Shown here in pieces: positions 5,066-45,454 of a stretch of 64,000 nt of DNA. The notes under the pieces were generated by a model that saw only the letters and a program-made list of their open reading frames with translations, had not been told where the DNA came from and ran no database searches. Where the stretch lies: the NCBI GenBank assembly GCA_040376705.1, contig JBEIQE010000001.1, positions 58,193 through 122,192 on the forward strand, read 5' to 3'. A program made the position numbers and the translations under genes. The first letter of the stretch is position 1. Each line of letters opens with the position of its first letter. The DNA is from Micavibrio sp. (lineage in GTDB: Bacteria; Pseudomonadota; Alphaproteobacteria; UBA2400).

Positions 5066-5161
5066 TCTTTGTATTATTAACCTTTTGGCAAACAGCTCCC
5101 TTCATAACTGATATTGCGCCGCGGCAGCTGAATGCCCGGTTCATTCATGAGGAGTGGCCAA

Positions 5162-5563: not shown

Positions 5564-5604
5564 CCAGAACACAAGCTACAGCCTACAAACAGGGGATTAT
5601 TGAT

Positions 5605-6198: not shown

Positions 6199-6318
6199 GC
6201 CTGCAGCCAGCGTCTCAAAAATACCACAGACTCCAATCGCTTAGCGCGTTAACACATCTGTTCGGCAAGGCCGTTTAGGGTTATTCTATCCTCAGGTTTT
6301 ACTTATGGGGATAGCGGC

Positions 6319-10710: not shown

Positions 10711-10715
10711 GATGC

Positions 10716-11147: not shown

Positions 11148-11228
11148 GATTGTCTCCTTAAGTGTGGCGACAATTTAGTAAGCTGGGCTAGGCGCACGCA
11201 AGCATATACTGCGTTAAGGATTATGAAC

Positions 11229-11636
11229 TTAGTGGTGCAGGTCGTCGTAGATCATTTTAACCAGCTCTTCCTTTTGCCGTGCACCATATTCGGCATTAAA
11301 CGGCTGGCCCCATACCGGCGCTGGCCACGCGGCATCGCCAATACAGCGGGCAATTACATGCACATGCAGCTGGCGGGTGATATTGCCGATGGAGGCAATA
11401 TTAAGCTTGTCTGGCGTTGTGAGCTTGCGCAGCACATGCGCAACTTTATTCACTTCGCGCAGCAGCGTGCCTTGATCAGCCTCGGAAAGGTCAATCAGGT
11501 CGTAAACTTCGGTGCGGCGGGGCACCAGAACCAGCCATGGCCAGGTCGCGTTTTTATGCAGACGTACGCTGCACAGCGTGAGATCGCAGATAAACCAGGT
11601 GTCACGTTCAAGGTTCGGGTCGAGCGCAAAGGTCAT
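11229..11636 (-). CDS. HIT family hydrolase
   Basis: Carries the histidine triad HVHVHVIAR (HxHxHxx). 135 aa. It overlaps the fliP stop by 4 bp. Confidence 0.8.
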   Translation of the reverse strand: MTFALDPNLERDTWFICDLTLCSVRLHKNATWPWLVLVPRRTEVYDLIDLSEADQGTLLREVNKVAHVLRKLTTPDKLNIASIGNITRQLHVHVIARCIGDAAWPAPVWGQPFNAEYGARQKEELVKMIYDDLHH

Positions 11637-12439
11637 GGCGTAGCTCCCACGCCGTAGCTTTGTACCAGCGAGCCCGCCAGCATGTTCCAGCCATCAATCA
11701 ACACAAAGAAGATGATCTTGAACGGGAGCGAGATAACCACTGGTGGCAGCATCATCATACCCATGGCCATGAGGACCGAGGCCACTACCATATCGATTAC
11801 CAAAAACGGCAGGAAGATGAGGAAGCCGATTTCGAATGCGCGCTTGAGCTCCGAGATCATGAAGGCAGGAATAAGCGCAACCAGTGGCGTCTCTTCCGGC
11901 TTCATTTCAGCAGTGCTGTACTTGCCCATATCGAGGAAGAGCTGCAGGTCCTTATCGCGTACATGCACCATCATGAAGGCGTGGAACGGCTCGACTGTGG
12001 CCTCATAGGCGGCTTTCTCGTCTATCGTTTCGTTCATGTACGGCTCGATGCCGTTTTCCCATGCCTTGGTAAAGGTTGGTGCCATGATGAAGAAGGTCAG
12101 GAACAGCGCAAGCGAGATCAGCACCTGATTGGGCGGTGTCTGCTGCACACCAAGCGCCGAGCGCACGAACGAGAGCACCACGATAATGCGGGTAAAGCTG
12201 GTAACCATCACCAAGATGCCCGGCGCAAGCGAGAGCACCGTAAGCATGGCGATAAGCTGGATCATACGGGCGGAGCTGGATGCGCCGCCTTCCTGCGCAG
12301 GGCCGCCCATATCGAGCGACAGGGTCTGTGCAATAGCGGGCAAGGCCAATAGCAGGAAGAGGCTGATCAGGCACAGCTTGAACAGGGCCGGCAGGTGCGG
12401 GCGCAGGTTGTGCACAAATTTCATTGGGGGCAGCTTCAT
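11633..12439 (-). CDS. fliP: Flagellar biosynthesis protein FliP
   Basis: Canonical FliP segments are present: MIQLIAMLTVLSLAPGILVMVTSFTRIIVVLSF and GVQQTPPNQVL, with 4 TM helices. Confidence 0.9.
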   Translation of the reverse strand: MKLPPMKFVHNLRPHLPALFKLCLISLFLLLALPAIAQTLSLDMGGPAQEGGASSSARMIQLIAMLTVLSLAPGILVMVTSFTRIIVVLSFVRSALGVQQTPPNQVLISLALFLTFFIMAPTFTKAWENGIEPYMNETIDEKAAYEATVEPFHAFMMVHVRDKDLQLFLDMGKYSTAEMKPEETPLVALIPAFMISELKRAFEIGFLIFLPFLVIDMVVASVLMAMGMMMLPPVVISLPFKIIFFVLIDGWNMLAGSLVQSYGVGATP

Positions 12440-12720
12440 GATGCGGGAGCCTCGGGGGGAATGTTGCGCTCAATAACTTGGGATTCGCCGGTAGATGAGA
12501 CGAGCAGCAGATGCTCGGCCTTGTCGCGGCGCACGAGGATGAGCTGATGGCGGGCGTCTATCTGCTTCCACTCAATCACGCCTAGGCGGTTGTTGGGATT
12601 ATTGCGGTTAAGCATCGGCACGTTGCGGCCAAACCGGTTGAGCAGCCACGCGCAGAGACCCAGTAGCGACAGGGTAAAGACAAGCGCCATGGCAAGGCGC
12701 AGCAGCAGCTCCAAATTCAT
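12436..12720 (-). CDS. fliO: Flagellar biosynthesis protein FliO
   Basis: A small single-TM protein immediately upstream of fliP and overlapping it. It has the FliO-like L-x-V-x-R segment (RHQLILVRRDKAEHLLLVSS). Confidence 0.6.
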   Translation of the reverse strand: MNLELLLRLAMALVFTLSLLGLCAWLLNRFGRNVPMLNRNNPNNRLGVIEWKQIDARHQLILVRRDKAEHLLLVSSTGESQVIERNIPPEAPAS

Positions 12721-12792
12721 AGGTTAATGGGTAGCTTGGTTTGCAGGGACGGGCAAGGTTTCCCTCTTCCCCTGCATAGGGGATGGACTAAA

Positions 12793-13128
12793 TCAAGCCG
12801 ACTCGTCGCTCTTGCCCAGTGCCGCTGCGCTTTTGGCATAGGCGGTGCTGGCCTTCAGGCGGGTGGAAAGCTGCTCGATGCCCGCCTTGGCGGCCTCGCG
12901 CTGGCGGCCAAAGTCCTGCGCCAGTTCGGCCAGCGCCTGATCGATTTCGAGCAGAGCCGGTATATGCATACGGCCCTCTTCCTTGGGCAGCTTTAACAGC
13001 CCGGCGTTGAGGGCCTCGAGCTTGGGGCTCAGCTCGCTCATATCGGCGGCATTGCCCTCGCTCATGAAGGTGCGTAACTGCTCGATGGTATTTTTAACGT
13101 CGGTCAGCTGGTCAGCAAATTCAGTCAT
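12793..13128 (-). CDS. Hypothetical helical protein in flagellar operon
   Basis: 111 aa, acidic, predicted coiled coil. Its start overlaps the preceding FlhB-C-like gene. Confidence 0.4.
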   Translation of the reverse strand: MTEFADQLTDVKNTIEQLRTFMSEGNAADMSELSPKLEALNAGLLKLPKEEGRMHIPALLEIDQALAELAQDFGRQREAAKAGIEQLSTRLKASTAYAKSAAALGKSDESA

Positions 13129-13394
13129 TTTTCGTTCCTTCCGTTGGCCTCGTAAACACGGGCCAGAATATCGCTTACCGCCTGCAGGGCTTCGAGCGGG
13201 ATGCTCTCCTCAAGATCGAGCGCCACAAGAATTTGCGCCAGATCGGCATCTTCACGCACTTTCACGCCATTGGCAAAGGCGAGGGCAAGAATCTCTTCGG
13301 CTACCTTGCCATAGCCGCTGGCCAATATCTGCGGCATGTCGCGGCTGCTTCCCAAAGCAGCGGCAATCTGGCGGCGGGGCTTCTCATCGCTCAT
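13125..13394 (-). CDS. FlhB C-terminal domain-like (EscU/YscU/HrcU family) small protein
   Basis: 89 aa, similar to the post-cleavage FlhB C-terminal domain (VAEEILALAFANGVKVREDADLAQILVALDLEESIPLEALQAVSDILARVY). It has no NPTH motif. Confidence 0.65.
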   Translation of the reverse strand: MSDEKPRRQIAAALGSSRDMPQILASGYGKVAEEILALAFANGVKVREDADLAQILVALDLEESIPLEALQAVSDILARVYEANGRNEK

Positions 13395-14902
13395 TTAATG
13401 TATAGTCCCAGCCATGCCGGCCGCGTTTCAGGCATATACAGCAAGCCTGCAGCTATAAGCAAAATCAGGGCCAGCGTGATCAGGGCTACCAGCCCGCCAG
13501 CCGCACTTATTGTAGCGCGCATGGGCATAACCCGCTTGATTGCCCATTGGCCAACCAGCCCTACGGTGGCCCACCCGAGCAGAGCCAGAATAACAGCAAT
13601 TGCGCCATCTACCGCCATGGGTGGGACCGGCAGGTCAAAGCGCGGGGTATTGAGCCAGCTGTAGTAAATACCGCCAGCAATAACGGCGCTAATCACAGAG
13701 GCCATAACGCGCGGCATCAGCGTGGTGCTGGCAAATACCTTTTTAAGCTGCGCATGAATGGCCATGGCCAAGGGGGCTGTGAGGCCAAACGGATAGCGCT
13801 GGCTAAAGAAGCGGGCAGGCTTTTCCCCCCGGCCCATGGCCTCGGCCAGCTCGCGGATGAGGCGGTATTTCTTGCTCATGGCCACCAGCGTACCAGCGTT
13901 CAGATCGGCGGGCACATGGCTGAGGGTATCGTCCAGCAATGGCGGGAATTCGGACAATACAGGCTTCATGCCTACAGCAATTACATCGTGAATTTCGCCC
14001 TTGAGGTTTAGGTTGTAACGGCCATAGGGCAGCAGGGCATCGTAATCTATAGCTGTACCAACCGGCGAGGGCATGGGCGTAATTACCGCATGCCCGCGTG
14101 CCAGCCCTTCGGCTCCCAGGGCATCAATCACCTGCGTTACGCCTTTGGGCGTAGAGGTGAGTGAGCCGAGCATGAAGCGGCCCTGTGCGGCCACTTTAAG
14201 TAATGTTTCCTCAACAAAAAAGCCGTGTCCCTGGCACTCGATACACAAGGTCAGGCCCGTCGCACGGCAATTGGCGCAGGGGGTGCGGCCTTTGGCCTGG
14301 CAGGTATGGCAGGCCAGTTTCATCTTGCCGCGGCAGTTAGTGCAGGGGCTGTTACGATCGTTCGGATTAACACCATTGCCACTACAGGTTGGGCACCACA
14401 TTTCGCGCGCACCGTTACAGGCCCTGCAGTTGACCTCGCGCTGGCCGTGGCACTGGCGGCAGGTTTCATTCTTCTGGCCACGGCAGATATCGCACGGCAA
14501 AACCAGCGCTACGCGCTTGGTCTGTTTGGCCAAATCCCAGTCGCCCTGCTCAAGGCCCCAGCCGCCGGTGGGGCTTTTTGCCAGCCGTGCGCGTAGCTCT
14601 TCAACCCAGCTCGGATCTTCGGCCAACTCGCTATGGAAGCTGCCGATGTAGCCCGCCAGCTCTTCGCGGCTCTTGAACACGGCAGCTTCGTTGCCCTTGG
14701 GCAAACCCGGCACGCGGGTTTCGGTCGGGACCACCTGCAGCTCAAGCATCAAGCGGCCCGGAAGATGCAGGTCAGTCTCCTGAACAGTTTTGAGTTTGAT
14801 GTCCTCGAGCGAGTAGCCGTTGCCAACCAGAAGGCGGCGGAGCAGGGCCAGGGTTTTGGCCTCGGTATCAGAAGATTTGGGGCCTTCTGGAATATTGCTC
14901 AT
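13391..14902 (-). CDS. Membrane protein with DnaJ-type CxxCxG zinc-finger repeats (8 CxxC motifs) and C-terminal multi-TM region
   Basis: Residues about 140-230 read CDICRGQ..CRQCHGQ..CRACNGA..CPTCSGNG..CTNCRGK..CHTCQAK..CANCRATG..CIECQGHG. The C-terminal roughly 120 aa are hydrophobic. The start overlaps the csrA stop (ATGA). Confidence 0.6.
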   Translation of the reverse strand: MSNIPEGPKSSDTEAKTLALLRRLLVGNGYSLEDIKLKTVQETDLHLPGRLMLELQVVPTETRVPGLPKGNEAAVFKSREELAGYIGSFHSELAEDPSWVEELRARLAKSPTGGWGLEQGDWDLAKQTKRVALVLPCDICRGQKNETCRQCHGQREVNCRACNGAREMWCPTCSGNGVNPNDRNSPCTNCRGKMKLACHTCQAKGRTPCANCRATGLTLCIECQGHGFFVEETLLKVAAQGRFMLGSLTSTPKGVTQVIDALGAEGLARGHAVITPMPSPVGTAIDYDALLPYGRYNLNLKGEIHDVIAVGMKPVLSEFPPLLDDTLSHVPADLNAGTLVAMSKKYRLIRELAEAMGRGEKPARFFSQRYPFGLTAPLAMAIHAQLKKVFASTTLMPRVMASVISAVIAGGIYYSWLNTPRFDLPVPPMAVDGAIAVILALLGWATVGLVGQWAIKRVMPMRATISAAGGLVALITLALILLIAAGLLYMPETRPAWLGLYIK

Positions 14903-15177
14903 TACTCGTCTTCATCCTCGGTTTTGGCGGTTGGAGGGGCCGGCGGTAGCGGCGAGGGCTTGACCGGCAGCATGAGGTTCGAAAGGTTGGGGGCATTTTC
15001 TGCCGCGGCACGGTTTTCCGCCTGGATGCGGTCGAATACTTCCTTACGCATTACCGTAACGTCAGGCGGGAAGTTGAAGCCCAGTTTTACGACCTTGCCG
15101 GAGACAGAAACCACAGTAACTTCAACATCTTCGTTGATTACGATGGTCTCTCCGATCTTTCGGGTCAAATAAAGCAC
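14902..15177 (-). CDS. csrA: Carbon storage regulator CsrA (with Pro-rich C-terminal tail)
   Basis: MLYLTRKIGETIVINEDVEVTVVSVSGKVVKLGFNFPPDVTVMRKEVFDRIQ matches the CsrA fold signature. Confidence 0.8.
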   Translation of the reverse strand: MLYLTRKIGETIVINEDVEVTVVSVSGKVVKLGFNFPPDVTVMRKEVFDRIQAENRAAAENAPNLSNLMLPVKPSPLPPAPPTAKTEDEDE

Positions 15178-15303
15178 TGAGTTGGCCCACTTCCTGCAAA
15201 GCCTGTGATGAGCCCAAAAGGCTCCTATTGAGTATTAACAGGCCGGACCCGTTCTGACAAAGCGAAAAGCTGCAGAACCCCAGCCTTGAAGGGTAGGGAT
15301 AAC

Positions 15304-15699
15304 ATGGACCTCAACGGATTAGCGTTGTTCCAGCAAATGGAACAAAAAATGCACTGGCTTTCGGCCCGTCAGACTGTTCTGTCGGAAAACATCGCCAATG
15401 CCGATACCCCGTACTATCAGGCACGCGACCTCAAGCCGTTTGCTGCTGAAATGGCCAACGCCATGCCGGTTGTGCGCACCAATGTGAGCCATATCTCGGG
15501 CGGCAACGCCTCAACCGTGCCGGTCGTGGCGCGCGACCGCAACTTCATCGAGATCAGCCCTGATGGCAATCAGGTGTCGCTCGAAGACCAGCTGACCAAG
15601 GTTGCCGACACCGGCATGGAATACCAGATGCTCACCAATCTGTACCGCAAGCAGCTGAGCATGATCAAAACCGCCCTTGGGCGTAACGGTTCGGCATAA
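15304..15699 (+). CDS. flgB: Flagellar basal-body rod protein FlgB
   Basis: VLSENIANADTPYYQARDL is the rod N-terminal motif. The ATG at 15304 has an aggga RBS. An alternative TTG start at 15286 is given in the ORF track. Confidence 0.85.
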   Translation: MDLNGLALFQQMEQKMHWLSARQTVLSENIANADTPYYQARDLKPFAAEMANAMPVVRTNVSHISGGNASTVPVVARDRNFIEISPDGNQVSLEDQLTKVADTGMEYQMLTNLYRKQLSMIKTALGRNGSA

Positions 15700-15713
15700 G
15701 GGGAGGACGCATC

Positions 15714-16130
15714 ATGAGCAACGATCTCGTAAATTCCCTCTCCATCTCATCCTCGGGTATGAAGGCGCAGAGCCTGCGTATGCGGGTGATTTCAGAGAAT
15801 ATCGCCAACGCCAACTCAACCGGCCTGACGCCGGGTGATATGCCCTACCGCCGCCAGGTGGTGAGCTTTGAGAACGAGCTGGACCGCGCTACCGGCGCCA
15901 ATATGGTCAAGGTGAGCGAAGTGGGTAAGGACCCCTCGCAGTTCCAGCGCAGGTTCATGCCCGGTCACCCAAGTGCTGATGCTGATGGCTATGTGATGAT
16001 GCCGAACGTCAATACCCTGATTGAGACCATGGATATGCGTGAGGCGCAGCGCAGCTACGAAGCGAATTTGAATGTTATCGAAGTTTCGCGTATGATGATC
16101 ATGCGCACTATCGATATGCTGAGAGCTTAA
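15714..16130 (+). CDS. flgC: Flagellar basal-body rod protein FlgC
   Basis: MRVISENIANANSTG and the C-terminal EMVNMI-like region NVNTLIETMDMREAQRSYEANLNVIEVSRMM are present. Confidence 0.9.
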   Translation: MSNDLVNSLSISSSGMKAQSLRMRVISENIANANSTGLTPGDMPYRRQVVSFENELDRATGANMVKVSEVGKDPSQFQRRFMPGHPSADADGYVMMPNVNTLIETMDMREAQRSYEANLNVIEVSRMMIMRTIDMLRA

Positions 16131-16144
16131 GGGAGGGCTGACAC

Positions 16145-16450
16145 ATGGTAAACATGAACCAGATTGCAGCCGCCGCTTACGGTGCTACCTCCAAGCTGCC
16201 AACCGCTGCCGGTGAGGGCGAAGCCCTGGGCGGCTCGAGCTTTGCCGATCTGGTCTCTTCAGCCCTTGATGACGCGATTGGCAGCCAGAAGGCCGCCGAG
16301 CAGATCTCGCGCGATGCCGTTATCGGTAAGGCCGATATCAATGATGTGATCCTCGCCGTACAGAACGCCGATGTGGTGCTGAATACCGTTGTCGCCATCC
16401 GCGACAAGGTAGTAAACGCCTATCAGGACATCCTGAGGATGGCCATTTAA
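16145..16450 (+). CDS. fliE: Flagellar hook-basal body protein FliE
   Basis: 101 aa, with the C-terminal FliE motif NTVVAIRDKVVNAYQDILRM. It follows flgC. Confidence 0.75.
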   Translation: MVNMNQIAAAAYGATSKLPTAAGEGEALGGSSFADLVSSALDDAIGSQKAAEQISRDAVIGKADINDVILAVQNADVVLNTVVAIRDKVVNAYQDILRMAI

Positions 16451-16492
16451 GGCGGGATTTGCCATTAAGGCCAATCGTGTTATGCTGGCTGC

Positions 16493-16771
16493 ATGACTGA
16501 AGCGGATATCATCCAAATCACCCGCGACGCGATCTGGCTGCTGCTGGTCGTGTGCTCGCCGCTTCTTATTATCGCCATGGTGGTGGGTTTCGTTATCTCG
16601 CTCATTCAGGCGCTGACGCAAATTCAGGAAGCGACTATCGCTTTCGTGCCTAAAATCATCATCATGTTCCTCTCGCTCATGTTTTTGCTGCCGTTCATGA
16701 CGCAAAAGATGATCGACTTCGGCAACCGCCTCTCACCGATGATTATTCAGGTTGGTGCCTCACAAGAGTAG
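16493..16771 (+). CDS. fliQ: Flagellar biosynthesis protein FliQ
   Basis: 92 aa with 2 TM. LLIIAMVVGFVISLIQALTQIQEATIAFVPKI is canonical FliQ. Confidence 0.9.
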   Translation: MTEADIIQITRDAIWLLLVVCSPLLIIAMVVGFVISLIQALTQIQEATIAFVPKIIIMFLSLMFLLPFMTQKMIDFGNRLSPMIIQVGASQE

Positions 16772-18299
16772 TGCCTGCAGGCAGGGTCTTCTCCCAAGCC
16801 GAGAGCGCTTTTTCTAGACGCTCAGCCTCAGCCGGATTGGCGAGGTAGAGGCTTACTGTATTGTGAGCTACCACAACGCTATCCCGATTAAAGCTAAATT
16901 CCCCTACTTTGCTCCAGCTGGCAGGTATCTGGTTGGTGAACCAAGGATCGTAAAGAATGAAGAGGCTAACCCCGTGGCGCGTAGCATAATCGGCCAGTGC
17001 CGCCTGATTCCATTTGCTGCCAAAGGCGCGTAGCTGTCTGACCTCCTCAGAGCCAAGGCCAAAAATATCATGCACCTGGTAGGGGTTTTGCCAACTTAGG
17101 TAGCCAATGTCATTCGCACCAACCGGGCCTTGCCAGAAGTTTTTTATCAGGCGCGTGTATTGCACCTGCTGCCAATAGATATCCTGACTGGCGTAGGGCA
17201 TTTTTGCTGTTGTCAGTAAACTAGCGTAAAAACAAAGCATGAATGCAAAGGCCCAGATGCAGCGCGAAGCAGGGCTGAACTTTATTGTCAGTATAACTGG
17301 GCGCAGGGTGTAGAGAAGCGCTATGAAGCCAAAGGCAAGTAGATAGCTATGATAGCGGTCACTCCAGATAACTCGCCCCCCCAGTATATGGGCAAGAATG
17401 CAAAGCATGGCCAGCAGAGCAATACGGTTTCGGTAAATCACCATCGTGATTGACAGGAAAACCAGTAAGATAATCAAAATGGATGACTGCGGATGCAGGA
17501 GGTTGAGCACGACACGCTCAAGAAAGACCTGAAACGGTTCGGCACCATTAATCGCGTCGGTTTTTATAAGAACCGAGCCCGCTACAAGAGGTAGGCCAAG
17601 TGAGTACAGATAAGCTGCATGTGCCAGCTGGATGGCTGTTTCTGTGGCGCCCACCAGCACGGCTACCAGTCTGTAACGCGTCGTCAACAGCCATAACAGG
17701 GTAAGGCCGAACAGCGCTATGCCTTCGTAGCGGATCATGGGCATAAGAATAAGCGCCGCCCAGAACCACTTGGGCAGAGGTTTATTCTCATTTAGATCGA
17801 TCAGTGCTGAGAGTACAGCCAACACGGTAGTAATATGCAGGCTGTGTTCCATGCCCAGCAGCAGCATGGTATAAATGTTGGTGGCCAGAGCAAAAAAGGC
17901 TACTAGCCAGCCAGTCGCATATGTTGGGTAAAGGTTGGTGAGGTTCAGCTGGCCAGAGATGCGGCACAGCAGCCACAGGCTGATGGCCGCAGGCACCAGG
18001 TTGAGAAACAGTGGTGCCAGCAGAAAATCAGCAAATGGCACCAGCAACCACGGATAGATTATTGATGAAGAGGCTGCCGCCGGAATGCCTGCCGTCGTAC
18101 CGTATTGGCCCGGCAAGAGGCTGGCGATAGCCAAATGAATATAGGTATCGTCTATCGGATAGGTGAAATGTCCCTCGGTCATATACAGGCTGCACGCCAG
18201 AAAAATGGCGATGATCAGCCCAGAGAGGGCAAGGGTTTGGGCATAAATACGCGGTGATGTACTTGAGTAAACCATATGCTTAACTTCGCCAGTGCTCAT
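16743..18299 (-). CDS. Multi-pass membrane protein with C-terminal soluble domain, paralog A (GT-C-like?)
   Basis: 518 aa. About 10 TM helices are followed by a roughly 180-aa C-terminal domain. A DD motif after the first TM (FTYPIDDTYIHL) is present. It is highly similar to the adjacent paralog B. It is antisense to the fliQ/fliR operon, and its 3' end overlaps the fliQ 3' end. Confidence 0.6.
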   Translation of the reverse strand: MSTGEVKHMVYSSTSPRIYAQTLALSGLIIAIFLACSLYMTEGHFTYPIDDTYIHLAIASLLPGQYGTTAGIPAAASSSIIYPWLLVPFADFLLAPLFLNLVPAAISLWLLCRISGQLNLTNLYPTYATGWLVAFFALATNIYTMLLLGMEHSLHITTVLAVLSALIDLNENKPLPKWFWAALILMPMIRYEGIALFGLTLLWLLTTRYRLVAVLVGATETAIQLAHAAYLYSLGLPLVAGSVLIKTDAINGAEPFQVFLERVVLNLLHPQSSILIILLVFLSITMVIYRNRIALLAMLCILAHILGGRVIWSDRYHSYLLAFGFIALLYTLRPVILTIKFSPASRCIWAFAFMLCFYASLLTTAKMPYASQDIYWQQVQYTRLIKNFWQGPVGANDIGYLSWQNPYQVHDIFGLGSEEVRQLRAFGSKWNQAALADYATRHGVSLFILYDPWFTNQIPASWSKVGEFSFNRDSVVVAHNTVSLYLANPAEAERLEKALSAWEKTLPAGTTLVRHQPE

Positions 18300-19843
18300 T
18301 TATATTGATGCCTTATAAGTGTTGTGCCGGCTGGCAGCGTCTTCTGCCATGCCATGAGGGCTTTTTCAAGCCGCTCGGCCTCAGCTGGATTGGCGAGATA
18401 AAGACTTACATAATTGTAGGCAACATTAACGTGTGGCCGGTTGAAGCTGAAATCTGCAACCTTGACCCAGCTGTCAGGCAGCTGTCCTGTAAACCAGGGG
18501 TCATAAATAATAAACAGGCTTAGATTATATCTGTTTGCATAGTCGTCCAGCTCTGCCGGATCCCAGCGATTACCATGCACGCGCAGCTGTCGCACTTCCT
18601 CAGAGCCGAGGCCGTAAATATCGTAAATCGGATAGGGGCTTTGCCAGCTTAGATAACCTATGTCGTTTGCACCAACTGGGTCTTGCCAAAAATCGCGTAC
18701 CAGCCGCGTGAATTGTACCTGCTGTAGATAAATATCCTGACTGGCATAAGGGGTTTTAAGCGTTGTCCAGAAGCTGCTGTGATAACTGGCAACAAAAACA
18801 ATCAGCCACAGTAGCCGGGAAATTGCATTGAACTCTATGCGAGCGATAGTTGGGCGCAGCAAATACATCAATACGATGAAGCTGAACGCGAGCAGATAGC
18901 TTTGGTAACGATCGCCCCATACAATTTTTCCCCCAATAAAATGAGCAATAATGCAGATAAACGCCAGTGCCACGATGCGATTGGCATGTTTGCCTGGCGC
19001 GAACAGCAGAAGTGCTGAGATAATAAGTAATATCCAGCTTCGTGGCTGAATCAGGTTATTGCGGATACGATCAAGAATACTGATGATTGGAGTGTCTATG
19101 TTGTTTACGCCGGTTTTTATCAGAATTGAGGCCGCTACCATGGGCAAGCCAGATGAATGCATATAAGCGGCGTGAATAAGGTGGACGCCCATCTCTATCC
19201 CGCCAACTATTAGGGCTGACATCCTGTATTGTGTGGTGAGCAGCCAGAGCAATGTAATGCCGAACATCGCAAATCCTTCGTAACGGATCATCGGCATCAG
19301 GATGAGTGCTGCCCAGAACCATTTGGGCAGTGGCTTCTTGTCATTCAGGTCGATCAGGCCGGAGAGTACAGCCAGAACAGCTGTAATATGCAGGCTGTGC
19401 TCCATCCCCAGCAGCGGCATACTGTAAAGGTTGCCCGCCAAACCAAGCAGCAAAATTATAGGGGCTGTTGCCCACGCGGGATAAAGAGTGATGAGGTTAA
19501 GCTGGGCCGAGATGCGGCAGAGCAGCCATAGGCTGGTTGCAAGTGCCAGCAGGTTAAGTACAAGTGGGGCAAACACCAAGTCGGCAAAGGGTGCCAGAAG
19601 CCACGGATATATAAGTGAGGATGAGGCTGCTGCCGGAATACCTGCCGTTGTGCCATATTGCCCCGGCAAGAGGCTGGCGATGGCCAGATGGATATAGGCA
19701 TCGTCAACCGCATAAGTGAAATGCCCGTCAGTCAGGTACAGGCTGCAACCCACAAGAACGGCAATAACCAGGCCCGAGAGGGCAAGCGTTTGGGCGTAAA
19801 TACGGGCAGAAGGCATGACGGCACATATAGCTGAGAGCGCCAT
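18296..19843 (-). CDS. Multi-pass membrane protein with C-terminal soluble domain, paralog B (GT-C-like?)
   Basis: 515 aa. It aligns along its full length with paralog A (FTYAVDDAYIHLAIASLLPGQYGTTAGIPAAASS...ANPAEAERLEKAL). Confidence 0.6.
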   Translation of the reverse strand: MALSAICAVMPSARIYAQTLALSGLVIAVLVGCSLYLTDGHFTYAVDDAYIHLAIASLLPGQYGTTAGIPAAASSSLIYPWLLAPFADLVFAPLVLNLLALATSLWLLCRISAQLNLITLYPAWATAPIILLLGLAGNLYSMPLLGMEHSLHITAVLAVLSGLIDLNDKKPLPKWFWAALILMPMIRYEGFAMFGITLLWLLTTQYRMSALIVGGIEMGVHLIHAAYMHSSGLPMVAASILIKTGVNNIDTPIISILDRIRNNLIQPRSWILLIISALLLFAPGKHANRIVALAFICIIAHFIGGKIVWGDRYQSYLLAFSFIVLMYLLRPTIARIEFNAISRLLWLIVFVASYHSSFWTTLKTPYASQDIYLQQVQFTRLVRDFWQDPVGANDIGYLSWQSPYPIYDIYGLGSEEVRQLRVHGNRWDPAELDDYANRYNLSLFIIYDPWFTGQLPDSWVKVADFSFNRPHVNVAYNYVSLYLANPAEAERLEKALMAWQKTLPAGTTLIRHQYK

Positions 19844-19861
19844 ATTGCGCTATCCTAAGTT

Positions 19862-20638
19862 ATGCCTGAGTCGGTACTGCAAGAGCTGCTCACAACCAAT
19901 GTCTTCGCGTGGATGCTAATCTTCACGCGGGTGGGCTCCGCTTTTATCGTTTTGCCGGGTGTTGGCGAGGCGTTTGTGCCGTCGCGCATTCGTCTGCTGT
20001 TCGCGCTTACGGTCAGTGCGCTGCTGGTGCCGGTAATTGGCCCCAAGTTACCTGCCATGCCAGCACAGGTGCTCGACCTGCTGGCACTGATTGCGGGTGA
20101 AGCATTCTACGGCCTGTTCATTGGTATTGTGGCACGGCTCATCATGTCCACAGTTGAAACTGCGGGTATGATCATCGCCATGCAGATATCGCTTTCCAAC
20201 GCGTCGGTTTTCAACCCCGCCATGGCAGCGCAAAGCTCGCTCACCTCGGCGCTTTTGGGCGTAGCTGCGCTGGCGCTGATGTTCGCGGCTGATTTGCACC
20301 ACTTGCTGCTCTGGGCGGTGGCGGATAGTTATACGGTATTCACTCCCGGCACCTTCCCGCAAATGGGCGATCATGCCACCACTTATGCAAGGTTACTGGG
20401 GCAGAGCTTTGGTGTGGCCACGCAGCTTTCGGCGCCGTTTTTGGTGCTAGGTCTTGTTTTTTATCTCGGCCTTGGCCTGCTGGCGCGCCTCATGCCGCAG
20501 TTGCAGATCTTCTTCATCGCCATTCCAGCGCAGATTTATCTCGGGCTTATCATTTTGGGCTTAACCCTCTCCACCATGATGATGGTGTGGCTGAACTACG
20601 CCCGCTTTACAATCAACGCTTTGATGGGGGTCGAATAA
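19862..20638 (+). CDS. fliR: Flagellar biosynthesis protein FliR
   Basis: 258 aa, 6-7 TM. The FliR N-terminal region is FAWMLIFTRVGSAFIVLPGVGE. Confidence 0.85.
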   Translation: MPESVLQELLTTNVFAWMLIFTRVGSAFIVLPGVGEAFVPSRIRLLFALTVSALLVPVIGPKLPAMPAQVLDLLALIAGEAFYGLFIGIVARLIMSTVETAGMIIAMQISLSNASVFNPAMAAQSSLTSALLGVAALALMFAADLHHLLLWAVADSYTVFTPGTFPQMGDHATTYARLLGQSFGVATQLSAPFLVLGLVFYLGLGLLARLMPQLQIFFIAIPAQIYLGLIILGLTLSTMMMVWLNYARFTINALMGVE

Positions 20639-20639
20639 G

Positions 20640-21731
20640 ATGTCCGAAGGCGAAGATGACTCCAGTAAAACGGAAGAGCCCTCCCAAAAAAAGCTAGAAG
20701 ACGCACGAAAAAAGGGCGAGACGGTCCTTTCCCGTGAAATCTCCCACTGGTTCATGATTTTGGCTGGCATGATGTTCATCATGCTCATCGCCGGGCCGCT
20801 GATGCGCGATCTGGGGCAGGCGCTGCTGCCGTTCATCACACGGCCACATGATTTGCCGGTCAGCACTATGGGCGAGATTGGCGCTGTGCTGAGCATCATG
20901 CTCAAGGCCACCATCATTGCCCTCTTGCTGCCGTTTTTGGCCTTCATCATCGGTGCGATTGCAGGCCCCATGCTGCAGGTGGGCCCCATGTGGTCGCCTG
21001 ACAGTATGATGCCCAAGCTTGAGCGTGTTTCGCTGATCGCGGGTATTGGCCGTATGTTCTCCAAGCGCAATCTGGTTGAGTTTATCAAGGGTCTGCTCAA
21101 GCTCACGATTGTCGCGATTGTGGTGATCTGGAGCGCATGGCCTTCTACGCCCACCATCGAGCATAGTATCGACCTGAGCCTTGTCGCCATGATGCTGCTG
21201 GTGAAAGAGATCAGCATGGATATTCTGGTCAGTGTGCTGGTGGTGATGTTCTGTATTGCCGCCGCCGACTATCTGGCTCAGCGTTTCATGTTCATGTCGC
21301 GCATGCGCATGAGCCGCTCGGAAATGAAGGAAGAATACAAACAGAGCGAAGGTGACCCGATCATCAAGCAGCGTCTGCGCCAGTTGCGTATGGAGCGTGC
21401 GCGCCAGCGCATGATGGCCTCTGTCCCCACGGCCGACGTTGTTATTACAAACCCTGAGCATTACGCGGTTGCTCTTAAATACAACCCGCCCGAGGATGCC
21501 GCACCTATTGTTGTGGCCATGGGTATGGACAATATCGCCCAGAAAATTAAGGAAGTCGCGCGCGAGCATGATATCCCGGTTGTCGAGAACCCGCCATTGG
21601 CCCGTGCGCTGTATGCGACTGCCGATATTGACCGGCAGATTCCCGGCGAGCACTACCGTGCGGTGGCCGAAATCATCAGCTATGTCTTCAAGCTCAAGAA
21701 CAAGATTATTAAACCCCAGCCAAAGAAGTAA
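20640..21731 (+). CDS. flhB: Flagellar biosynthesis protein FlhB
   Basis: 363 aa with 4 TM. An NPxH autocleavage site is present as NPEH (VVITNPEHYAVAL). The C-terminal domain is conserved. Confidence 0.9.
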   Translation: MSEGEDDSSKTEEPSQKKLEDARKKGETVLSREISHWFMILAGMMFIMLIAGPLMRDLGQALLPFITRPHDLPVSTMGEIGAVLSIMLKATIIALLLPFLAFIIGAIAGPMLQVGPMWSPDSMMPKLERVSLIAGIGRMFSKRNLVEFIKGLLKLTIVAIVVIWSAWPSTPTIEHSIDLSLVAMMLLVKEISMDILVSVLVVMFCIAAADYLAQRFMFMSRMRMSRSEMKEEYKQSEGDPIIKQRLRQLRMERARQRMMASVPTADVVITNPEHYAVALKYNPPEDAAPIVVAMGMDNIAQKIKEVAREHDIPVVENPPLARALYATADIDRQIPGEHYRAVAEIISYVFKLKNKIIKPQPKK

Positions 21732-27546: not shown

Positions 27547-28581
27547 ATGGGCAGGGTATATATGGGGCAATCACGGGACAGGCGTAATCCGCATGGCTGG
27601 CTTGGCGCGCTTGCGGGTTTTAACGGCCAGCAACAGCGCTGGGCTGCGGCAGCATTGGCGCATCTCGAGACACAATATAATAACGACCCACACAATATAC
27701 TTAAACTGGCCGAGGCGGCGCCTGCTGGCCTGACCGGCGAGATCCAACTGCGCCAGCTGGGGCGGGATTATGCAGCTTTCTGGTTGCTGCAGCGGTTTGA
27801 TTACAAGCAGGACCCAACGCCCGAACAGCAACAGGCCTTGTGGGAGCGCACATTAAGCATCCCCACCTTCCGCACGTTCGATTTGGTGCATGCGGCCATG
27901 GGGTGGGATATAACCACTCTGCGCGTTGGTGTGTCTCGGGATACTGCCGCCATGCGTTTTGCGGCCAGCCCGTTTGCTGATGAGCTGGAAGAGCTGTTGG
28001 CCTATGTGCCGGTGGCCGATAAAAAGGCTTATCTAGCCCTGCGCAACAGGCAGGGGTTTACTGCTGTGCATACGAGCGCGCATGCCAGCACACTGGCCGT
28101 GCTGGCGGCGCAGGGCGCCAGCCTTGAGGCCACTACGCGCATAGAGGTTGCAGGCTGCAAGATGGATGTGACTATAGCCCACCTCGCGGTACTCAATGGT
28201 CGCGTGGGCCAGACGCTTGAGCTGGTGCGCCTGCAGCCAGAGTTGTTCAAGCCAGACAAGCTGCTTGATTACACGCCGATGGAAGCCGGGCAGATGCAGC
28301 TTGAAGACATGCTCGAGGGCTATGGCCGCAAGCAGTTCAGCCAGCTTATCATCAGCGCGTTTACGGCCATTGCCAGCAAGGGCGAGCTGAATGCTGTTAG
28401 CCAGGTACCTGCCGAACAGCAGGATGCACTGGCCCAGCATTACGCCAATATTGCGCGCTGTGTGAATATCCCTGCGCATGTGCAGGGCAAGCCGCTGCCT
28501 TACCCCGAGCATGCGGATGTGCTGGGCCAGCTTGTTAAAACAGCACCGGTCAAGCCGCCAGAGAAAATGGGGCTGAATTGA
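27547..28581 (+). CDS. Ankyrin-repeat protein, paralog 1 (shared novel N-terminal domain plus ANK repeats)
   Basis: ANK-like repeats are GFTAVHTSAHASTLAVLAAQGASLE and TIAHLAVLNGR. The N-terminal domain NPHGWLGALAGFNGQ...DYAAFWLLQRF is shared with the next two ORFs. Confidence 0.65.
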   Translation: MGRVYMGQSRDRRNPHGWLGALAGFNGQQQRWAAAALAHLETQYNNDPHNILKLAEAAPAGLTGEIQLRQLGRDYAAFWLLQRFDYKQDPTPEQQQALWERTLSIPTFRTFDLVHAAMGWDITTLRVGVSRDTAAMRFAASPFADELEELLAYVPVADKKAYLALRNRQGFTAVHTSAHASTLAVLAAQGASLEATTRIEVAGCKMDVTIAHLAVLNGRVGQTLELVRLQPELFKPDKLLDYTPMEAGQMQLEDMLEGYGRKQFSQLIISAFTAIASKGELNAVSQVPAEQQDALAQHYANIARCVNIPAHVQGKPLPYPEHADVLGQLVKTAPVKPPEKMGLN

Positions 28582-29581: not shown

Positions 29582-30616
29582 ATGGCCAAACGTAAAAGCA
29601 AATCGCTGCTGGGTATCTATGCATCGCTCACCTCGAGCAGCCCTATCGCGCGCGAACAGGCCTTAACCCGCATCAACGGTATGTATGATGGCGATGGCCA
29701 GCGTATTGCCTATGCCTCCGAGTGTGCTTCTAAAAAGATTTTCTTTTACGGTAACAGTGAGCACGGTATGCAGCCCGACCCCAATGTCGTGCGCGCCGAC
29801 TTTGCCGCATGGCTGGTGATCAACAAGGTCAACCCGGGGCCGGACAGCAAACCGCTAAGTGCTGAAGCCGAATGGAAGTTGATGGAGCGTATCAGCAAGA
29901 TCGACGACAAGTTGCTAACGCTCATGGCGCTTGAGGCCGGTATTTCACCAATGCCACCCGCCAGAGCTGAGCTTAAGGAGACCAGCGCGCTGCAGCTGTT
30001 CTGCGAGAGTGCCAAGGCGGCCGAGGTGCATGCGTTTCTGGCGCTGGTGCCCGAGGCTACGCGCACCGAGGTCGTCAATTATATCGATGGCAAAGGCCGC
30101 AACGCCGTGCACTGCGCCACCCATAACCCAAATGTAGGCGTTATAACCGAGCTGAAGGGGGCGGGAGCAGATCTGGACGTGGTCTGGCAGGCCAGACTCG
30201 GCAAGCGCGAGCCTAAGCGCGCGGCGCATATGGCCGTGCTGGCGGGTAATCTGGGCGTAGCGACTGAGCTGGGCGGCTTGGCCCTGCACCAGTTTACCGC
30301 ATCGCCCGCATGCCCTGTGACTCCGTATGAGATGGGGATGCTGCGTATTCAGAATAATTTGTCCGAAGTGCCGCGCCCTGTGCCGATGAATGCTAAAGCC
30401 GAACACGCCAAGAACCCGATGCAGATGCTACCCCCCACCAACCCGCAAGAGGCGGACGAGGCCAAAGAGCGCGCCCTGCGCCTGCAGCGTATTATGGAAG
30501 CTACGGATATTGCGGCTGGCTTTTTGGGTATAAGCGCACCATTTGGTAACACAGGCAAGGTTGAGGCTGCGCAGCGTGCTGTTGGCGCCAAAAGCAACCA
30601 GCATGGTCTTAACTAA
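29582..30616 (+). CDS. Ankyrin-repeat protein, paralog 3
   Basis: GRNAVHCATHNPNVGVITELKGAGADLD and AAHMAVLAGNLG are ANK-like. The N-terminal region is more diverged (DFAAWLVINKV). Confidence 0.6.
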   Translation: MAKRKSKSLLGIYASLTSSSPIAREQALTRINGMYDGDGQRIAYASECASKKIFFYGNSEHGMQPDPNVVRADFAAWLVINKVNPGPDSKPLSAEAEWKLMERISKIDDKLLTLMALEAGISPMPPARAELKETSALQLFCESAKAAEVHAFLALVPEATRTEVVNYIDGKGRNAVHCATHNPNVGVITELKGAGADLDVVWQARLGKREPKRAAHMAVLAGNLGVATELGGLALHQFTASPACPVTPYEMGMLRIQNNLSEVPRPVPMNAKAEHAKNPMQMLPPTNPQEADEAKERALRLQRIMEATDIAAGFLGISAPFGNTGKVEAAQRAVGAKSNQHGLN

Positions 30617-38963: not shown

Positions 38964-40313
38964 TTAAGAAGCCTGCTGCTCGCGGTAACGGGCAAGCTCA
39001 CCATGCTGGCTGTCATCAAGGCCGGCCTTTTCCTCTTCTTCGCTCACACGGAGCTTCATGAAGAGGCCAACTAGCTTGATCAGCACATAGGTAACGATAA
39101 CCGAGTACACAATCACCGTTGCTGTAGCAGCCAGGTTGGCCTTCAGCAGGGCGGTTGAGCCATCCACGAAGTAACCCTGATTGGTCACAGCCGAGTTAAC
39201 TGCTGTGGTGGCAAACATGCCGGTCATGAGCGCGCCTAGAATACCGCCCACACCGTGGCAGCCGAACACGTCCAGCGCGTCGTCAAGGCGGGTTGCGCGC
39301 TTGATCATGCGTGAGGCGAGGTTACACAGCACGCCACCAATAGCACCCATGAACATGGCGCTTTGAATGGTAACAAAGCCAGCTGCAGGCGTGATGACCA
39401 CCAGACCAGCCACCAGACCAACCGCCGAACCTACAGCCGAGGGCTTGCCGTTTACCAGCCAGTCATAAGCCATCCAGGTGAGGAAGGCACAGGCAGCAGC
39501 CACAAAGGTGGTAGCAAACGCATGTGCAGCCAGACCGTTGGCAGCCAGAGCCGAACCAGCGTTAAAGCCGAACCAGCCAAACCACAGCAGGGCAGCGCCG
39601 AGCAGAACCATGCTTACATCGTTCGGGCGTGCGTGATCCTTGCCATGGCCAGCATTACGGCGACCGAAGATGAGCGCAGCCACCAGTGCCGAAACACCAG
39701 ACGAGATGTGCACAACCAGACCACCAGCAAAGTCGAGACCACCAGCAGCGAAGATCCAGCCATCCGGACCCCAAACCCAGTGGGCGATGGGGGCATAAAC
39801 CAAGAGGCTCCACAGGGCCATGATCACCAACCAAGCCGCAAAGTTGATACGTTCAACCAGCGAGCCGATGATGAGTGCCGGGGTAATAATGGCAAACATC
39901 ATCTGGAACACAACGAACAGAATGTGCGGAATGTTGTTGGTTGTACCGTTCAGCACAAAGCCATTGGTATCGACATTCGCGAGCATGAAGTAGGCTTTCC
40001 AGTCGCCAATCCACATGCCGCCTTCGCCAAACGCGAGCGAGTAGCCAACTACAACCCACAGCACGCCCACAATCGCGAGGGCTACATAGTTCTTGAACAA
40101 TGTGGAAACCACGTTCTTGTTTTTCACCATACCGGCGTAGAAGAACGCCAGACCGGGGGTCATGAGCATCACGAGCGCAGCTGACATAAGCAGCCAGGCG
40201 GTGGCACCGGCATCAATAGGAATTGGGGTAGAAGCGGCTGCGGCGTCCTGTGCCATTGCGGCAGAAGGTGCCAATAGCGCCAGTGCGAGCGCATACCATC
40301 GTGATTTGAACAT
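38964..40313 (-). CDS. amtB: Ammonium transporter AmtB
   Basis: Signal peptide plus 11 TM. Amt family signatures include DFAGGLVVHISSG, GAIGGVLCN and GCHGVGGILG. Confidence 0.9.
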   Translation of the reverse strand: MFKSRWYALALALLAPSAAMAQDAAAASTPIPIDAGATAWLLMSAALVMLMTPGLAFFYAGMVKNKNVVSTLFKNYVALAIVGVLWVVVGYSLAFGEGGMWIGDWKAYFMLANVDTNGFVLNGTTNNIPHILFVVFQMMFAIITPALIIGSLVERINFAAWLVIMALWSLLVYAPIAHWVWGPDGWIFAAGGLDFAGGLVVHISSGVSALVAALIFGRRNAGHGKDHARPNDVSMVLLGAALLWFGWFGFNAGSALAANGLAAHAFATTFVAAACAFLTWMAYDWLVNGKPSAVGSAVGLVAGLVVITPAAGFVTIQSAMFMGAIGGVLCNLASRMIKRATRLDDALDVFGCHGVGGILGALMTGMFATTAVNSAVTNQGYFVDGSTALLKANLAATATVIVYSVIVTYVLIKLVGLFMKLRVSEEEEKAGLDDSQHGELARYREQQAS

Positions 40314-43500: not shown

Positions 43501-44097
43501 TTAGGATTTGCTGCCTACTTCGGTGCATTCAAGGTCGCGCATGAGGCCGTCACGTAAACTATAAACCGCTCCATGTATCTGCAGCTGCTGGCCGCGGGCC
43601 CAGGCACTTTGCACAATCGGGGTAGAGGAGAGGCGTGCAACCTGCTTGCGTACACTCAGGTCGCATAGATGGTTGGCCCTGTCATTTACATCAACAATTG
43701 CTTTCAGTTCGTCTGCATGATGCTGCGCGAGTTCGGCCAGCGGATTGAGCCAGTAGTCGATAAGGCCGAACTTCTGCTTGTCGATAACCGCACGCACGCC
43801 GCCACAACCATGGTGGCCGCACACAACAATGTGTTTTACCTTGAGTACATCCACTGCAAACTGCAGCACTGAAAGGCAGTTGAGATCGCCGGGATTGACC
43901 AGATTGGCCACGTTACGGTGCACAAACACAGCGCCGGGATCGAGGCCGGTAATCACGTTAGCGGGCACGCGGCTGTCCGAGCAGCCAATCCACAGATAAT
44001 TGGGAGCCTGCTGGCCTTGCAGGCGGGTGAAAAACTCGGGGTCAGAGCGCTTACGCTCGGCTGCCCAGAGCTTGTTGCCGTCGAGAAGTTCTTTCAT
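43501..44097 (-). CDS. Beta-class carbonic anhydrase
   Basis: CSDSRV...HRNVANLV...VVCGHHGCGGV are the beta-CA zinc-ligand motifs. Confidence 0.85.
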   Translation of the reverse strand: MKELLDGNKLWAAERKRSDPEFFTRLQGQQAPNYLWIGCSDSRVPANVITGLDPGAVFVHRNVANLVNPGDLNCLSVLQFAVDVLKVKHIVVCGHHGCGGVRAVIDKQKFGLIDYWLNPLAELAQHHADELKAIVDVNDRANHLCDLSVRKQVARLSSTPIVQSAWARGQQLQIHGAVYSLRDGLMRDLECTEVGSKS

Positions 44098-44140: not shown

Positions 44141-45175
44141 TTAGGCCTCGGCATCGGGCTTCTGGATGATAACGCCAGTCCAGCCAAGGCCGTTATATTC
44201 CTGATAGCCGATGGTTTTGGCAAAGGCCACGAGGGTACCATCACTCTCATAATAATGGCCTTTGGTTTTACCCTGCGCGTTGAGGACAAAGCTTTGCAGC
44301 ATGCCCTGTCCATCGCTGGCGGCAATCACGCGGTTCTTGTTATCGAGCAGCAGCACGCGGCTACGCTTCCATTCATCAGCCGAGAGGGTAGGCTCACTGC
44401 ATACAATGGTTTTCGATTGTTCCGGCCAGTCGAAGAACACACCGATAACGCCCAGCGTTTCGCCATGTACTTCGCCACCACGGCGCACCGCTGTTGCGTA
44501 AACGGAAACGGGCAGGTTCTCATGCAGGGGGTCGTTGAAGATATCGTCCACCACATATTCATCGCCGCTGCGGGTGGCGATTGCGCCGTTGAACCATTGG
44601 GTGCGGCCCACGCTGGCCCCCATGACGCGCTGGTATTTACCGGCGTTGGAGCAGGCCACTACATTGCCGGTTTTATCAACCAGCACGAGGTTCATATAAA
44701 CCGAGTAGAAGCGGTTGATCAGCGCCAGACGCTTGATGGCGTGTTCGATATTCGCAGGGGTGAGGTCGGCCATGCACTTGTAGAAGGCGTCATCAGTGGC
44801 CCACCAGCGCACGTCGGCAGTGCGCTCGTAAAGATTACGTACAATCAGCTGCACCAGCGTTTGCGCCATTTCCGTCAGGCGGGTGCTGTCGCGCTCGGCA
44901 AACTGGTCCGAGAGCTGGCTGGTCTGGGTCATGATGTCGCCCAGCACGCGGGTACGCAGATCCTTGGAATTCTTGGCCGCCTGAGAGGCCAGTGATTTTA
45001 CCTCGCCCGCAACCACGGCAAAGCCCTTGCCGAAATCACCCGCACGCACGGCTTCAATCGTGGCATTGAGGGCGAGCAGGTTAGTCTGATGGGCGATTTT
45101 CTCGTTGGTAGCGGCAAATTTCTGCACTTCGATCTGAATGGTATCGATAATCTCACGGATTTTGATATTCGACAT
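44141..45175 (-). CDS. MCP signalling-tip fragment fused to C-terminal Cache-like sensor domain (atypical soluble chemoreceptor-like protein)
   Basis: The N-terminal roughly 70 aa read [39 protein letters not shown], the methyl-accepting tip consensus. There is no TM or HAMP. The C-terminal roughly 200 aa have a Cache-like pattern ([11 protein letters not shown]...GVIGVFFDW). Confidence 0.6.
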
Positions 45176-45454
45176 TGTGAGTTATCTCCCCTGATTCATC
45201 TATGCTGCGCACATCCAACTATGCGTACGCTGCCTTGCAATATGGTTAACGATTGTGACCAATGTTGACTAATATCAATAAAAAAGCCAGCGGCTTGTTC
45301 TTTTTAAACAGCAATACGGGATCTTGCGGAATAATATTACCCAACGGCAGGCGGCTGATTTTATGAGGCTATTCGGCGGTTTTGGCAAGCGCCCGGGCCA
45401 AACGCGGGTTTGTAGTGAGTCTCAGGGCGGTTACGGCGGGGCTTAAGAGCTGTC

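Follow-up and report, generated by a model that had tools for sequence, protein, structure and literature searches.

The usual picture of a chemoreceptor is a long methylatable coiled coil anchored in the membrane, and Cache domains are generally regarded as the chief extracellular sensors of prokaryotes. The two are joined in the canonical transmembrane receptors with a double-Cache (dCache) domain, such as Pseudomonas aeruginosa PctA and PctC, Campylobacter jejuni Tlp3 and Helicobacter pylori TlpA and TlpC, in which a first transmembrane (TM) helix, the periplasmic dCache, a second TM helix, a HAMP domain, a methylatable coiled coil and the receptor tip follow one another in this order. Soluble receptors include H. 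pylori TlpD, which carries a full-length signalling coiled coil and a zinc-binding CZB domain, and the IcpA-type receptors, which have a full-length MA domain, a length of about 500 amino acids (aa) or more and no Cache domain. Stand-alone intracellular dCache_1AM proteins have been described in Actinobacteria (Cerna-Vargas et al., 2023 preprint, doi 10.1101/2023.04.06.535858). The protein analyzed here, a mini-chemoreceptor, is encoded in a 64,000-nucleotide stretch of the genome of a Micavibrio sp. (GenBank assembly GCA_040376705.1, contig JBEIQE010000001.1, positions 58,193 to 122,192 of the forward strand), referred to below as the window. Its family departs from both of the usual pictures, with an intracellular dCache wired by its own stalk helix to a tip of about six heptads. 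It combines, within the chemoreceptor family, an inverted order of domains with a signalling module reduced to the tip and a dCache located inside the cell.

The structure of the protein was predicted with AlphaFold2 as a single chain from an alignment of 46 sequences (mean predicted local distance difference test score, pLDDT, 82.9; predicted template-modelling score, pTM, 0.68). In the model, a first helix (residues 3-44) is followed by a break at residue 45, one very long helix (residues 46-126) and two alpha/beta modules (approximately residues 129-250 and 251-340), and the chain ends with the second of these, no helix or TM segment coming after it. The predicted structure is a tip hairpin whose C-terminal arm (C-arm) runs as a single helix into a complete dCache stalk, and the domain order is the reverse of that of a normal dCache chemoreceptor. 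Coordinates of all features are collected in Table 1.

The receptor tip was identified by profile and sequence searches. The Pfam model of the signalling domain of methyl-accepting chemotaxis proteins (MCPs; MCPsignal, PF00015) matched residues 20-93 (E=1.6e-21, 77 bits, gathering score 34.6), covering only positions 38-110 of the 172 in the profile, and matches in a sequence search of the PDB were confined to residues 6-111. Residues 12-78 aligned without gaps to residues 356-422 of Escherichia coli Tsr, at an offset of 344, and residues 6-75 to 'protein interaction region' fragments of Thermotoga maritima (3ur1_C and 4jpb_B, 85-90 aa, E ~1e-11), from crystal structures of receptor tip fragments in complex with CheA and CheW. 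Conservation was counted in an alignment of 64 diverse members, whose identity to the window protein is 26-58%. Among the Tsr residues that make the contacts between dimers in the trimer (F373, I377, L380, N381, V384, E385, R388, V398 and E402), the equivalents of N381 (63 of 64 members), V384 (as Ile in 57), E385 (55), R388, V398 and E402 (54 each) and L380 (46) are kept; the window protein has N37, I40, E41 and R44 at such positions of the N-terminal arm (N-arm; 54-63 of 64) and V54 and E58, equivalent to V398 and E402, in the C-arm. In the clade linked to ammonium transporter (amt) genes, a 27-residue tip peptide is invariant in 46 close sequences.

The methylation consensus [ASTG]xx[EQ][EQ]xx[ASTG] was present in 1 of the 46 close and 9 of the 64 diverse members, against 17% of composition-matched shuffles, so methylation sites are not conserved in the family; residues 1-126 of the window protein contain no adjacent E/Q pair. 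A TM segment is absent, since the maximal 19-residue Kyte-Doolittle hydropathy is just 0.87, and the window protein has no signal peptide-like N-terminus and no Pfam match to HAMP or to the CheW-like domain (PF01584). The N-arm measures 45 residues in the window protein and usually 44-63 across the family (approximately 6-9 heptads), and does not form the long antiparallel coiled coil, flexible bundle included, of any recognised MCP length class. A preliminary description of this gene, made from the DNA letters alone, had placed an MCP hairpin tip at the N-terminus and had held the remaining coiled coil, the methylation helices, TM segments and HAMP to be missing; all of this was borne out, and the tip folds as a hairpin in the model.

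The region behind the tip has the fold that defines a dCache, in which two PAS-like alpha/beta modules come after a long N-terminal helix, and the extracytoplasmic placement of a dCache between two TM helices is absent. The Pfam dCache_1 model (PF02743) aligned to residues 79-238 with 24.5 bits, under its gathering score of 45, and was passed by relatives (P0146 with 78 bits, P0188 with 65 bits and P0135 with 60 bits). In the preliminary description the C-terminal part had been taken for a Cache/PAS-like sensor of about 200 residues. The Cache type stands, whereas the extent of a single module gives way to the double Cache of the model, and the strength of that predicted fold speaks against the possibility, also raised there, that the region has no sensor fold; of the Pfam families suggested for checking, MCPsignal scored above its cut-off and dCache_1 below.

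The most conserved segment of the family is residues 107-128, the end of the stalk helix adjoining the upper module, which bears the hallmark motif RNLYERxxDVRWWA; R113, L115, E117, R118, D121, R123, W124, W125 and A126 are at least 90% conserved in the 64 members. Further conserved positions of the sensor are R149-L150, Y157, Y160, W194-F195, R231, G242 and W250. The hallmark was present in every alternative architecture found and, as DRNLFERYSDV, in the periplasmic dCache of a TM MCP encoded beside a family member. Alignment of the cytoplasmic dCache with the periplasmic dCache of that neighbor (one cluster) by hhalign gave a probability of 93% and E=2.5e-7. Because of the shared motif and this homology, the cytoplasmic sensor is, as judged from sequence, derived from a periplasmic dCache subfamily.

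A profile search of the PDB returned the dCache of Tlp3 (4xmq, E=0.004), with W194-F195 lined up with the W-Y pair of its amino-acid pocket. The dCache_1AA motif consists of a carboxylate-binding Arg or Lys two positions before W-Y, together with a Tyr and an Asp, and the pocket residues in PctA are R126, W128, Y144 and D173 (Gumerov et al., 2022). In our sequence alignment the position two before W194-F195 is variable, so that a carboxylate-binding basic residue is not conserved, and Asp249 falls two positions past Tlp3 D196 in the profile alignment; an amino-acid sensor of the known dCache_1AA type was considered and, on these two grounds, would not fit.

The mini-chemoreceptor gene is intact and widely conserved. 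Its reading frame (44141..45175) lies on the minus strand, which corrects the preliminary description, and the peptide quoted there corresponds to residues 30-63 of the 344-aa product. A protein search returned more than 7,900 matches sharing sequence with the window protein, the best 120 of which are 61-100% identical with full-length coverage and, save one fragment, 339-360 aa long; more than 100 homologues with 61-100% identity share both its start and its length of about 340 aa. Homologues with the same length, start and domain order occur in several alphaproteobacterial orders and in other phyla-level metagenome bins, and named members come from Micavibrio, Ciceribacter, many Azospirillum species, Skermanella, Niveispirillum, Nitrospirillum, Magnetospirillum and Roseomonas. 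A sensor-only query (residues 96-344) against 1.84 billion cluster representatives (clusters at 50% identity) returned 895 clusters at E<0.001 and 560 at E<1e-10, in most of which the domain lies at approximately residues 96-340 of proteins of about 340-380 aa. Family members are annotated throughout in generic terms, and NCBIfam holds no family-specific model, giving partial matches to MCP equivalogs via the tip only. Genome counts of chemoreceptors and of their length classes probably misfile mini-receptors, because the annotation is merely 'methyl-accepting chemotaxis protein' or 'hypothetical'. Upstream of the gene, nothing convincing as a sigma-54 element (GG-N10-GC) was seen by eye in 110 bp, and a sigma-70 scan gave no site 5' of it.

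Table 1. Coordinates of the mini-chemoreceptor gene, the segments of its product and other features of the window
Feature	Coordinates	Strand	Evidence
Mini-chemoreceptor coding sequence, complete (344 aa + stop), ATG start	44141..45175	-	open reading frame list; ~340-aa full-length homologues, 61-100% identity
Shine-Dalgarno-like GGGGAGA, 10 nt 5' of the ATG	45185..45191	-	read from sequence
N-arm helix of the signalling hairpin (residues 3-44, ~6 heptads), with conserved 13-residue segment	45044..45169	-	model; Tsr alignment
Hairpin U-turn (residues 45-49, A-G-D-F-G; ~ Tsr A389-G393)	45029..45043	-	helix break at 45 in model; Tsr offset
C-arm helix pairing with the N-arm (residues 50-92)	44900..45028	-	Pfam, PDB alignment, model
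C-arm continuation as dCache stalk helix (residues 93-128), unbroken, bearing the hallmark motif	44792..44899	-	model; 64-member conservation
Upper ('membrane-distal' type) PAS-like module (residues 129-250), usual dCache ligand pocket	44426..44791	-	
Lower ('membrane-proximal' type) PAS-like module (residues 251-340)	44156..44425	-	
Beta-carbonic anhydrase gene, 44 bp downstream of the receptor gene, possibly co-transcribed	43501..44097	-	Pfam Pro_CA E=5e-52
GAF-PAS-PAS protein, 492 aa, ending after HisKA (residues 427-489)	41797-43275	-	
Amt gene, 3.8 kb downstream of the receptor gene	38964..40313	-	Pfam Ammonium_transp E=1.3e-118
TerD-domain gene pair and TMEM43-family membrane protein gene	37021-38895 and 40560-41738	+	
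tRNA-Gln(CTG), divergent from the receptor gene, flanked by terminator-like hairpins	45496-45569	+	
cheY-like receiver and CheZ phosphatase genes	5132..6198	+	Pfam Response_reg E=5.7e-28, CheZ E=3.6e-13
Flagellar region (FlgF/G-type rod, FliM, FliP, FliR, FlhB)	5..21731	.	Pfam

Relatives of the protein occur in several other architectures. The sensor is combined with longer MCP hairpins in P0129 and P0133 (450-475 aa, MCPsignal positions 6-144), the tip-dCache unit is doubled in tandem in P0146, and two or three hairpin-dCache units with degenerate tips (for example ISLNGIVFASKLGRKGAALAPIF) make up P0135, P0160 and P0162. In P0188, P0213 and P0221 (about 870 aa) two sensor units are followed by a C-terminal CheW domain. 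Because the sensor is joined in some proteins to a receptor tip and in others to CheW, its architectures point to chemosensory arrays as the destination. The CheW-fused and tandem degenerate-tip architectures appear to be undescribed, and these relatives may rival the window protein in interest.

Genomic context was compared at 86 family loci, which were merged at ≥95% protein identity into 60 groups, 51 of them with at least two neighbors within 5 kb. A profile search of genome contigs was swamped by the generic tip pattern LALNATIEA and gave full-length loci only in Micavibrio (L006), Ciceribacter (L007) and Azospirillum (L059); because of this saturation, the metagenome scan was made with a sensor-only alignment. 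Labels of neighboring genes were confirmed by Pfam on representatives. Chemotaxis (che) genes lay within 5 kb at 18 of the 51 non-redundant loci, flagellar genes at 5 and an amt gene at 13, the clade of the window included; these categories overlap, some loci being counted in more than one. Where X stands for the mini-receptor gene, the typical che order is cheA-cheW-mcp-X-cheR-cheD-cheB-(Tll0287-like)-cheY-cheW-mcp, flagellar clusters read flaG-fliD-fliS-pilZ-X-cheY-cheZ-motA, and one locus (L122) reads amt-X-STAS-cheY-cheA-cheW-mcp. At many loci the mini-receptor gene stands directly beside a large TM MCP gene. The host of the window is flagellated with a chemotaxis output, since flagellar genes and a cheY-cheZ pair are present in the window. 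As a separate observation, the Tll0287-like protein encoded between cheB and cheY (L134, 13949-14710, with equivalents at L104, L110 and L111) carries a CxxCH motif, which suggests a redox input to the same pathway.

We consider it fairly probable that the protein is a soluble, non-adapting mini-chemoreceptor that docks on CheA and CheW and reports an intracellular ligand. In a homodimer, two hairpins would form a four-helix tip bundle in contact with CheW and with the CheA P5 domain. Packing of these bundles into trimers of dimers would bring the protein into a chemosensory array or to its edge. Binding of a small intracellular ligand in the dCache would shift the stalk helix, and because this helix doubles as the C-arm of the tip, its movement would act directly on the kinase activity of CheA and in turn on the level of phosphorylated CheY (CheY-P) and flagellar switching. 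Since the methylation helices are absent, the protein cannot adapt by itself through CheR and CheB, and adaptation would have to come from neighboring receptors or from ligand turnover. A ligand-responsive element inserted into chemoreceptor arrays, as had been put forward at the outset, is supported indirectly by the trimer contacts that are kept, by placement in che and flagellar operons and by the CheW-fused sister proteins.

Several observations count against such a receptor. The equivalent of Tsr F373 is variable across the 64 members. The hairpin is far shorter than that of the shortest MCP class, 24H; Alexander and Zhulin reportedly distinguished in 2007 MCP length classes from 24H to 64H, 24H being the shortest recognised. 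With a hairpin of this length, a bulky dCache dimer would lie only about 6 nm above the baseplate and might clash with full-length receptors. Neighbors of the che, flagellar and amt kinds are all absent within 5 kb at 21 of the 51 loci, and no cheA or cheW gene was found within the 64-kb window. The guess at the ligand, set out below, comes from gene adjacency only; the basic residue of dCache_1AA pockets is not conserved and the pocket Asp is shifted by two positions.

Some of the same features would suit a ligand-regulated decoy or array modulator, the alternative that survives best and one that we judge rather unlikely. In such a protein the tip would compete with full-length receptors for CheW and CheA or cap trimers, tuning array size or kinase output instead of serving as a receptor itself, and the ligand of the dCache would set the strength of competition. 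A near-consensus tip without adaptation helices would serve this purpose, a very short hairpin is hard to fit among long receptors, and many loci adjoin a large TM MCP gene, one such neighbor having the homologous dCache described above. However, conservation of the trimer contacts and of the sensor as a whole is as strong as in working receptors, and the CheW-fused sister proteins suggest signal input to arrays, not mere blocking.

Further readings turn on the ammonium transporter. Loci with an amt neighbor are concentrated in the clade nearest the window (55-100% identity to the window protein), and all four relative arrangements of the receptor gene and amt occur. In the closest relatives (L086-L089 and L001) the order is X-amt-terD-terD, with the receptor gene directly adjoining amt, and in the window it is X-[beta-carbonic anhydrase, GAF/PAS/HisKA protein, TMEM43]-amt-terD-terD; because the closest relatives keep the two genes side by side, the 3.8-kb gap of the window appears to have arisen by insertion between ancestrally paired X and amt genes. 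The TerD pair keeps its synteny with amt in both the window and the closest relatives, the TMEM43 gene is confined to the window, and the GAF-PAS-PAS-HisKA protein, which has no HATPase_c domain, lies between the receptor gene and amt in the window lineage only; it is either an ATPase-less kinase or a phosphotransfer or regulatory partner. Carbonic anhydrase was considered as a conserved partner, with CO2 or bicarbonate as the ligand, and was rejected, the gene being absent from the other 85 family loci. A gene for a P-II protein (GlnK/GlnB) was present at none of the 86 loci, with the query checked against Pfam as a positive control. The chance of an amt gene within 5 kb of a random gene is presumably below 1%, by a rough estimate that was not computed.

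Because linkage to amt persists in the clade of the window without the usual glnK partner, a nitrogen-status ligand (imported ammonium or methylammonium, glutamine or 2-oxoglutarate) may be proposed as a weak guess, and it is the weakest step of the reading as a soluble mini-chemoreceptor. A narrower version, in which taxis to ammonium or nitrogen status is coupled to transport and the family would be both its cytoplasmic receptor and the functional partner of GlnK-less Amt in Micavibrio-like Alphaproteobacteria, is doubtful, somewhat more so than the decoy. The receptor would then sense ammonium imported by Amt, or dock on Amt, and signal to CheA via its tip.

Still less likely is that the protein acts mainly on or with Amt in place of GlnK, its hairpin being a mere dimerisation or oligomerisation element with no role in chemotaxis. 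The frequency of amt neighbors in all orientations, centred on the clade of the window, the lack of a P-II gene beside amt-linked members, and GlnD encoded about 1 kb away at one locus (L003) are what such a regulator would lead one to expect. Against it, the tip of the Amt-linked clade is as canonical as that of any MCP and is the very peptide that is invariant in 46 sequences; a plain dimerisation helix would need no residues facing CheA and CheW or making trimer contacts. Moreover, locus L122 unites amt and the mini-receptor gene with cheY-cheA-cheW-mcp, other clades lie inside che and flagellar operons, and the host of the window has cheY, cheZ and flagella. That the gene is a truncated pseudogene or a mis-called piece of a conventional MCP, a possibility named in the preliminary description to which the limitation of the MCPsignal match to the central 73 of 172 profile positions might seem to point, can be dismissed with near certainty because of family conservation, with thousands of homologues of equal length, start and domain order, because the frame is intact with a Shine-Dalgarno sequence, and because the upstream 500 bp hold the tRNA-Gln gene and terminator-like hairpins and no remnants of a decayed MCP N-terminus.

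Further observations were made in the window and at one other locus. The tRNA-Gln(CTG) gene stands between the receptor gene and a thioredoxin gene at 45683-46138. The cheY-cheZ pair is embedded in the flagellar region, amid which also lie large open reading frames (ORFs) without a Pfam match, for example at 6319-9867 (1182 aa), 13391-14902, 16743-18299 and 18296-19843. At 27547-30616 (plus strand), three tandem paralogous ORFs of 344, 313 and 344 aa share an N-terminal NP(H/Y)G(W/R)LG..AGF(N/K)G and a C-terminal (G/T)LN; the first gave no Pfam match at E<1e-5, and the set looks like a lineage-specific expanded family, possibly of secreted effectors. Paralogy of the mini-receptor gene with the other 344-aa ORFs of the window (27547..28581 and 29582..30616) was considered and rejected, the sequences being unrelated. 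Beside the receptor gene of an alphaproteobacterial metagenome-assembled genome (GCA_036770365.1; L004, 9041-16014), three consecutive large RCC1/WD40-RLD repeat proteins are encoded, which is unusual for bacteria.

Motile bacteria probably use the mini-receptor to steer by an internal metabolite, which may be linked to ammonium uptake. If it signals as proposed for a soluble mini-chemoreceptor, it would be the smallest natural unit leading from a sensor to kinase control, and attractive for structural studies of how a ligand-driven movement of a helix is passed to CheA, since no membrane, HAMP domain or adaptation region would intervene. It would also represent a widespread route for metabolism-dependent taxis guided by internal state (about 560 sensor clusters at 50% identity), with members in Azospirillum and Magnetospirillum, genera in experimental use, and its repeated pairing with GlnK-less amt would be a testable handle on a link between nitrogen uptake and motility. 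Were the narrower ammonium-taxis version true, its tip would be the shortest natural receptor tip known, and the tip-dCache unit with its CheW-fused relatives would form an unrecognised class of intracellular metabolite sensors that join chemosensory arrays without a membrane, a HAMP domain or methylation.

A tip hairpin joined to a cytoplasmic dCache was not described in the literature searched on intracellular Cache proteins and on Amt-linked or soluble chemoreceptors. Two MCP-like proteins were compared from limited information. Amb0994, the MamK-binding MCP-like protein of Magnetospirillum magneticum, is probably a different protein, compared only by the peptide implied by a published single-guide RNA (sgRNA): this peptide (...IMVDIT...) matches neither the N-termini (MSEPERI...) nor the motif region of the Magnetospirillum members retrieved. 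MtpA, the cytosolic formaldehyde-taxis MCP of Methylobacterium aquaticum, in which 'only an MCP signaling domain' was detected, is a possible relative of the family, compared by description only.

Set against the canonical receptors PctA, PctC, Tlp3, TlpA and TlpC, the mini-receptor is inverted, with its tip first and its dCache last, is entirely cytoplasmic and lacks the TM, HAMP and methylation regions; its signal must leave the dCache by the N-terminal stalk helix and not by the C-terminal end. Like TlpD and other class IV cytoplasmic receptors it is soluble, with its sensor C-terminal to the hairpin, but its coiled coil has about six heptads per arm and its sensor is a dCache. The mini-receptor gene at L122 occupies the first position of an X-STAS-cheY-cheA-cheW operon, the position that the IcpA-type soluble MCPs (Sinorhizobium meliloti IcpA and Agrobacterium fabrum Atu0514) occupy in their che operons. 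The natural hairpin has the same extent as the crystallised T. maritima fragments 3ur1 and 4jpb, which are binding-competent and show that a tip this long is stable as a unit; those fragments are engineered and sensor-free, whereas the mini-receptor is a natural protein with a sensor. As in the dCache_1AM proteins of Actinobacteria, a dCache is re-used inside the cell, but those proteins have no MCP tip, are paired with a transcription factor and carry an amine-binding motif, whereas the mini-receptor has its own RNLYERxxDVRWWA hallmark and is linked to chemotaxis. Closest of all in the sensor are the proteins with two dCache domains and CheW (P0188, P0213 and P0221), which share the cytoplasmic dCache subfamily and the hallmark motif and likewise carry an array-docking module; they would dock via the CheW-like domain, at about 870 aa and with two sensors, and the mini-receptor via its tip.

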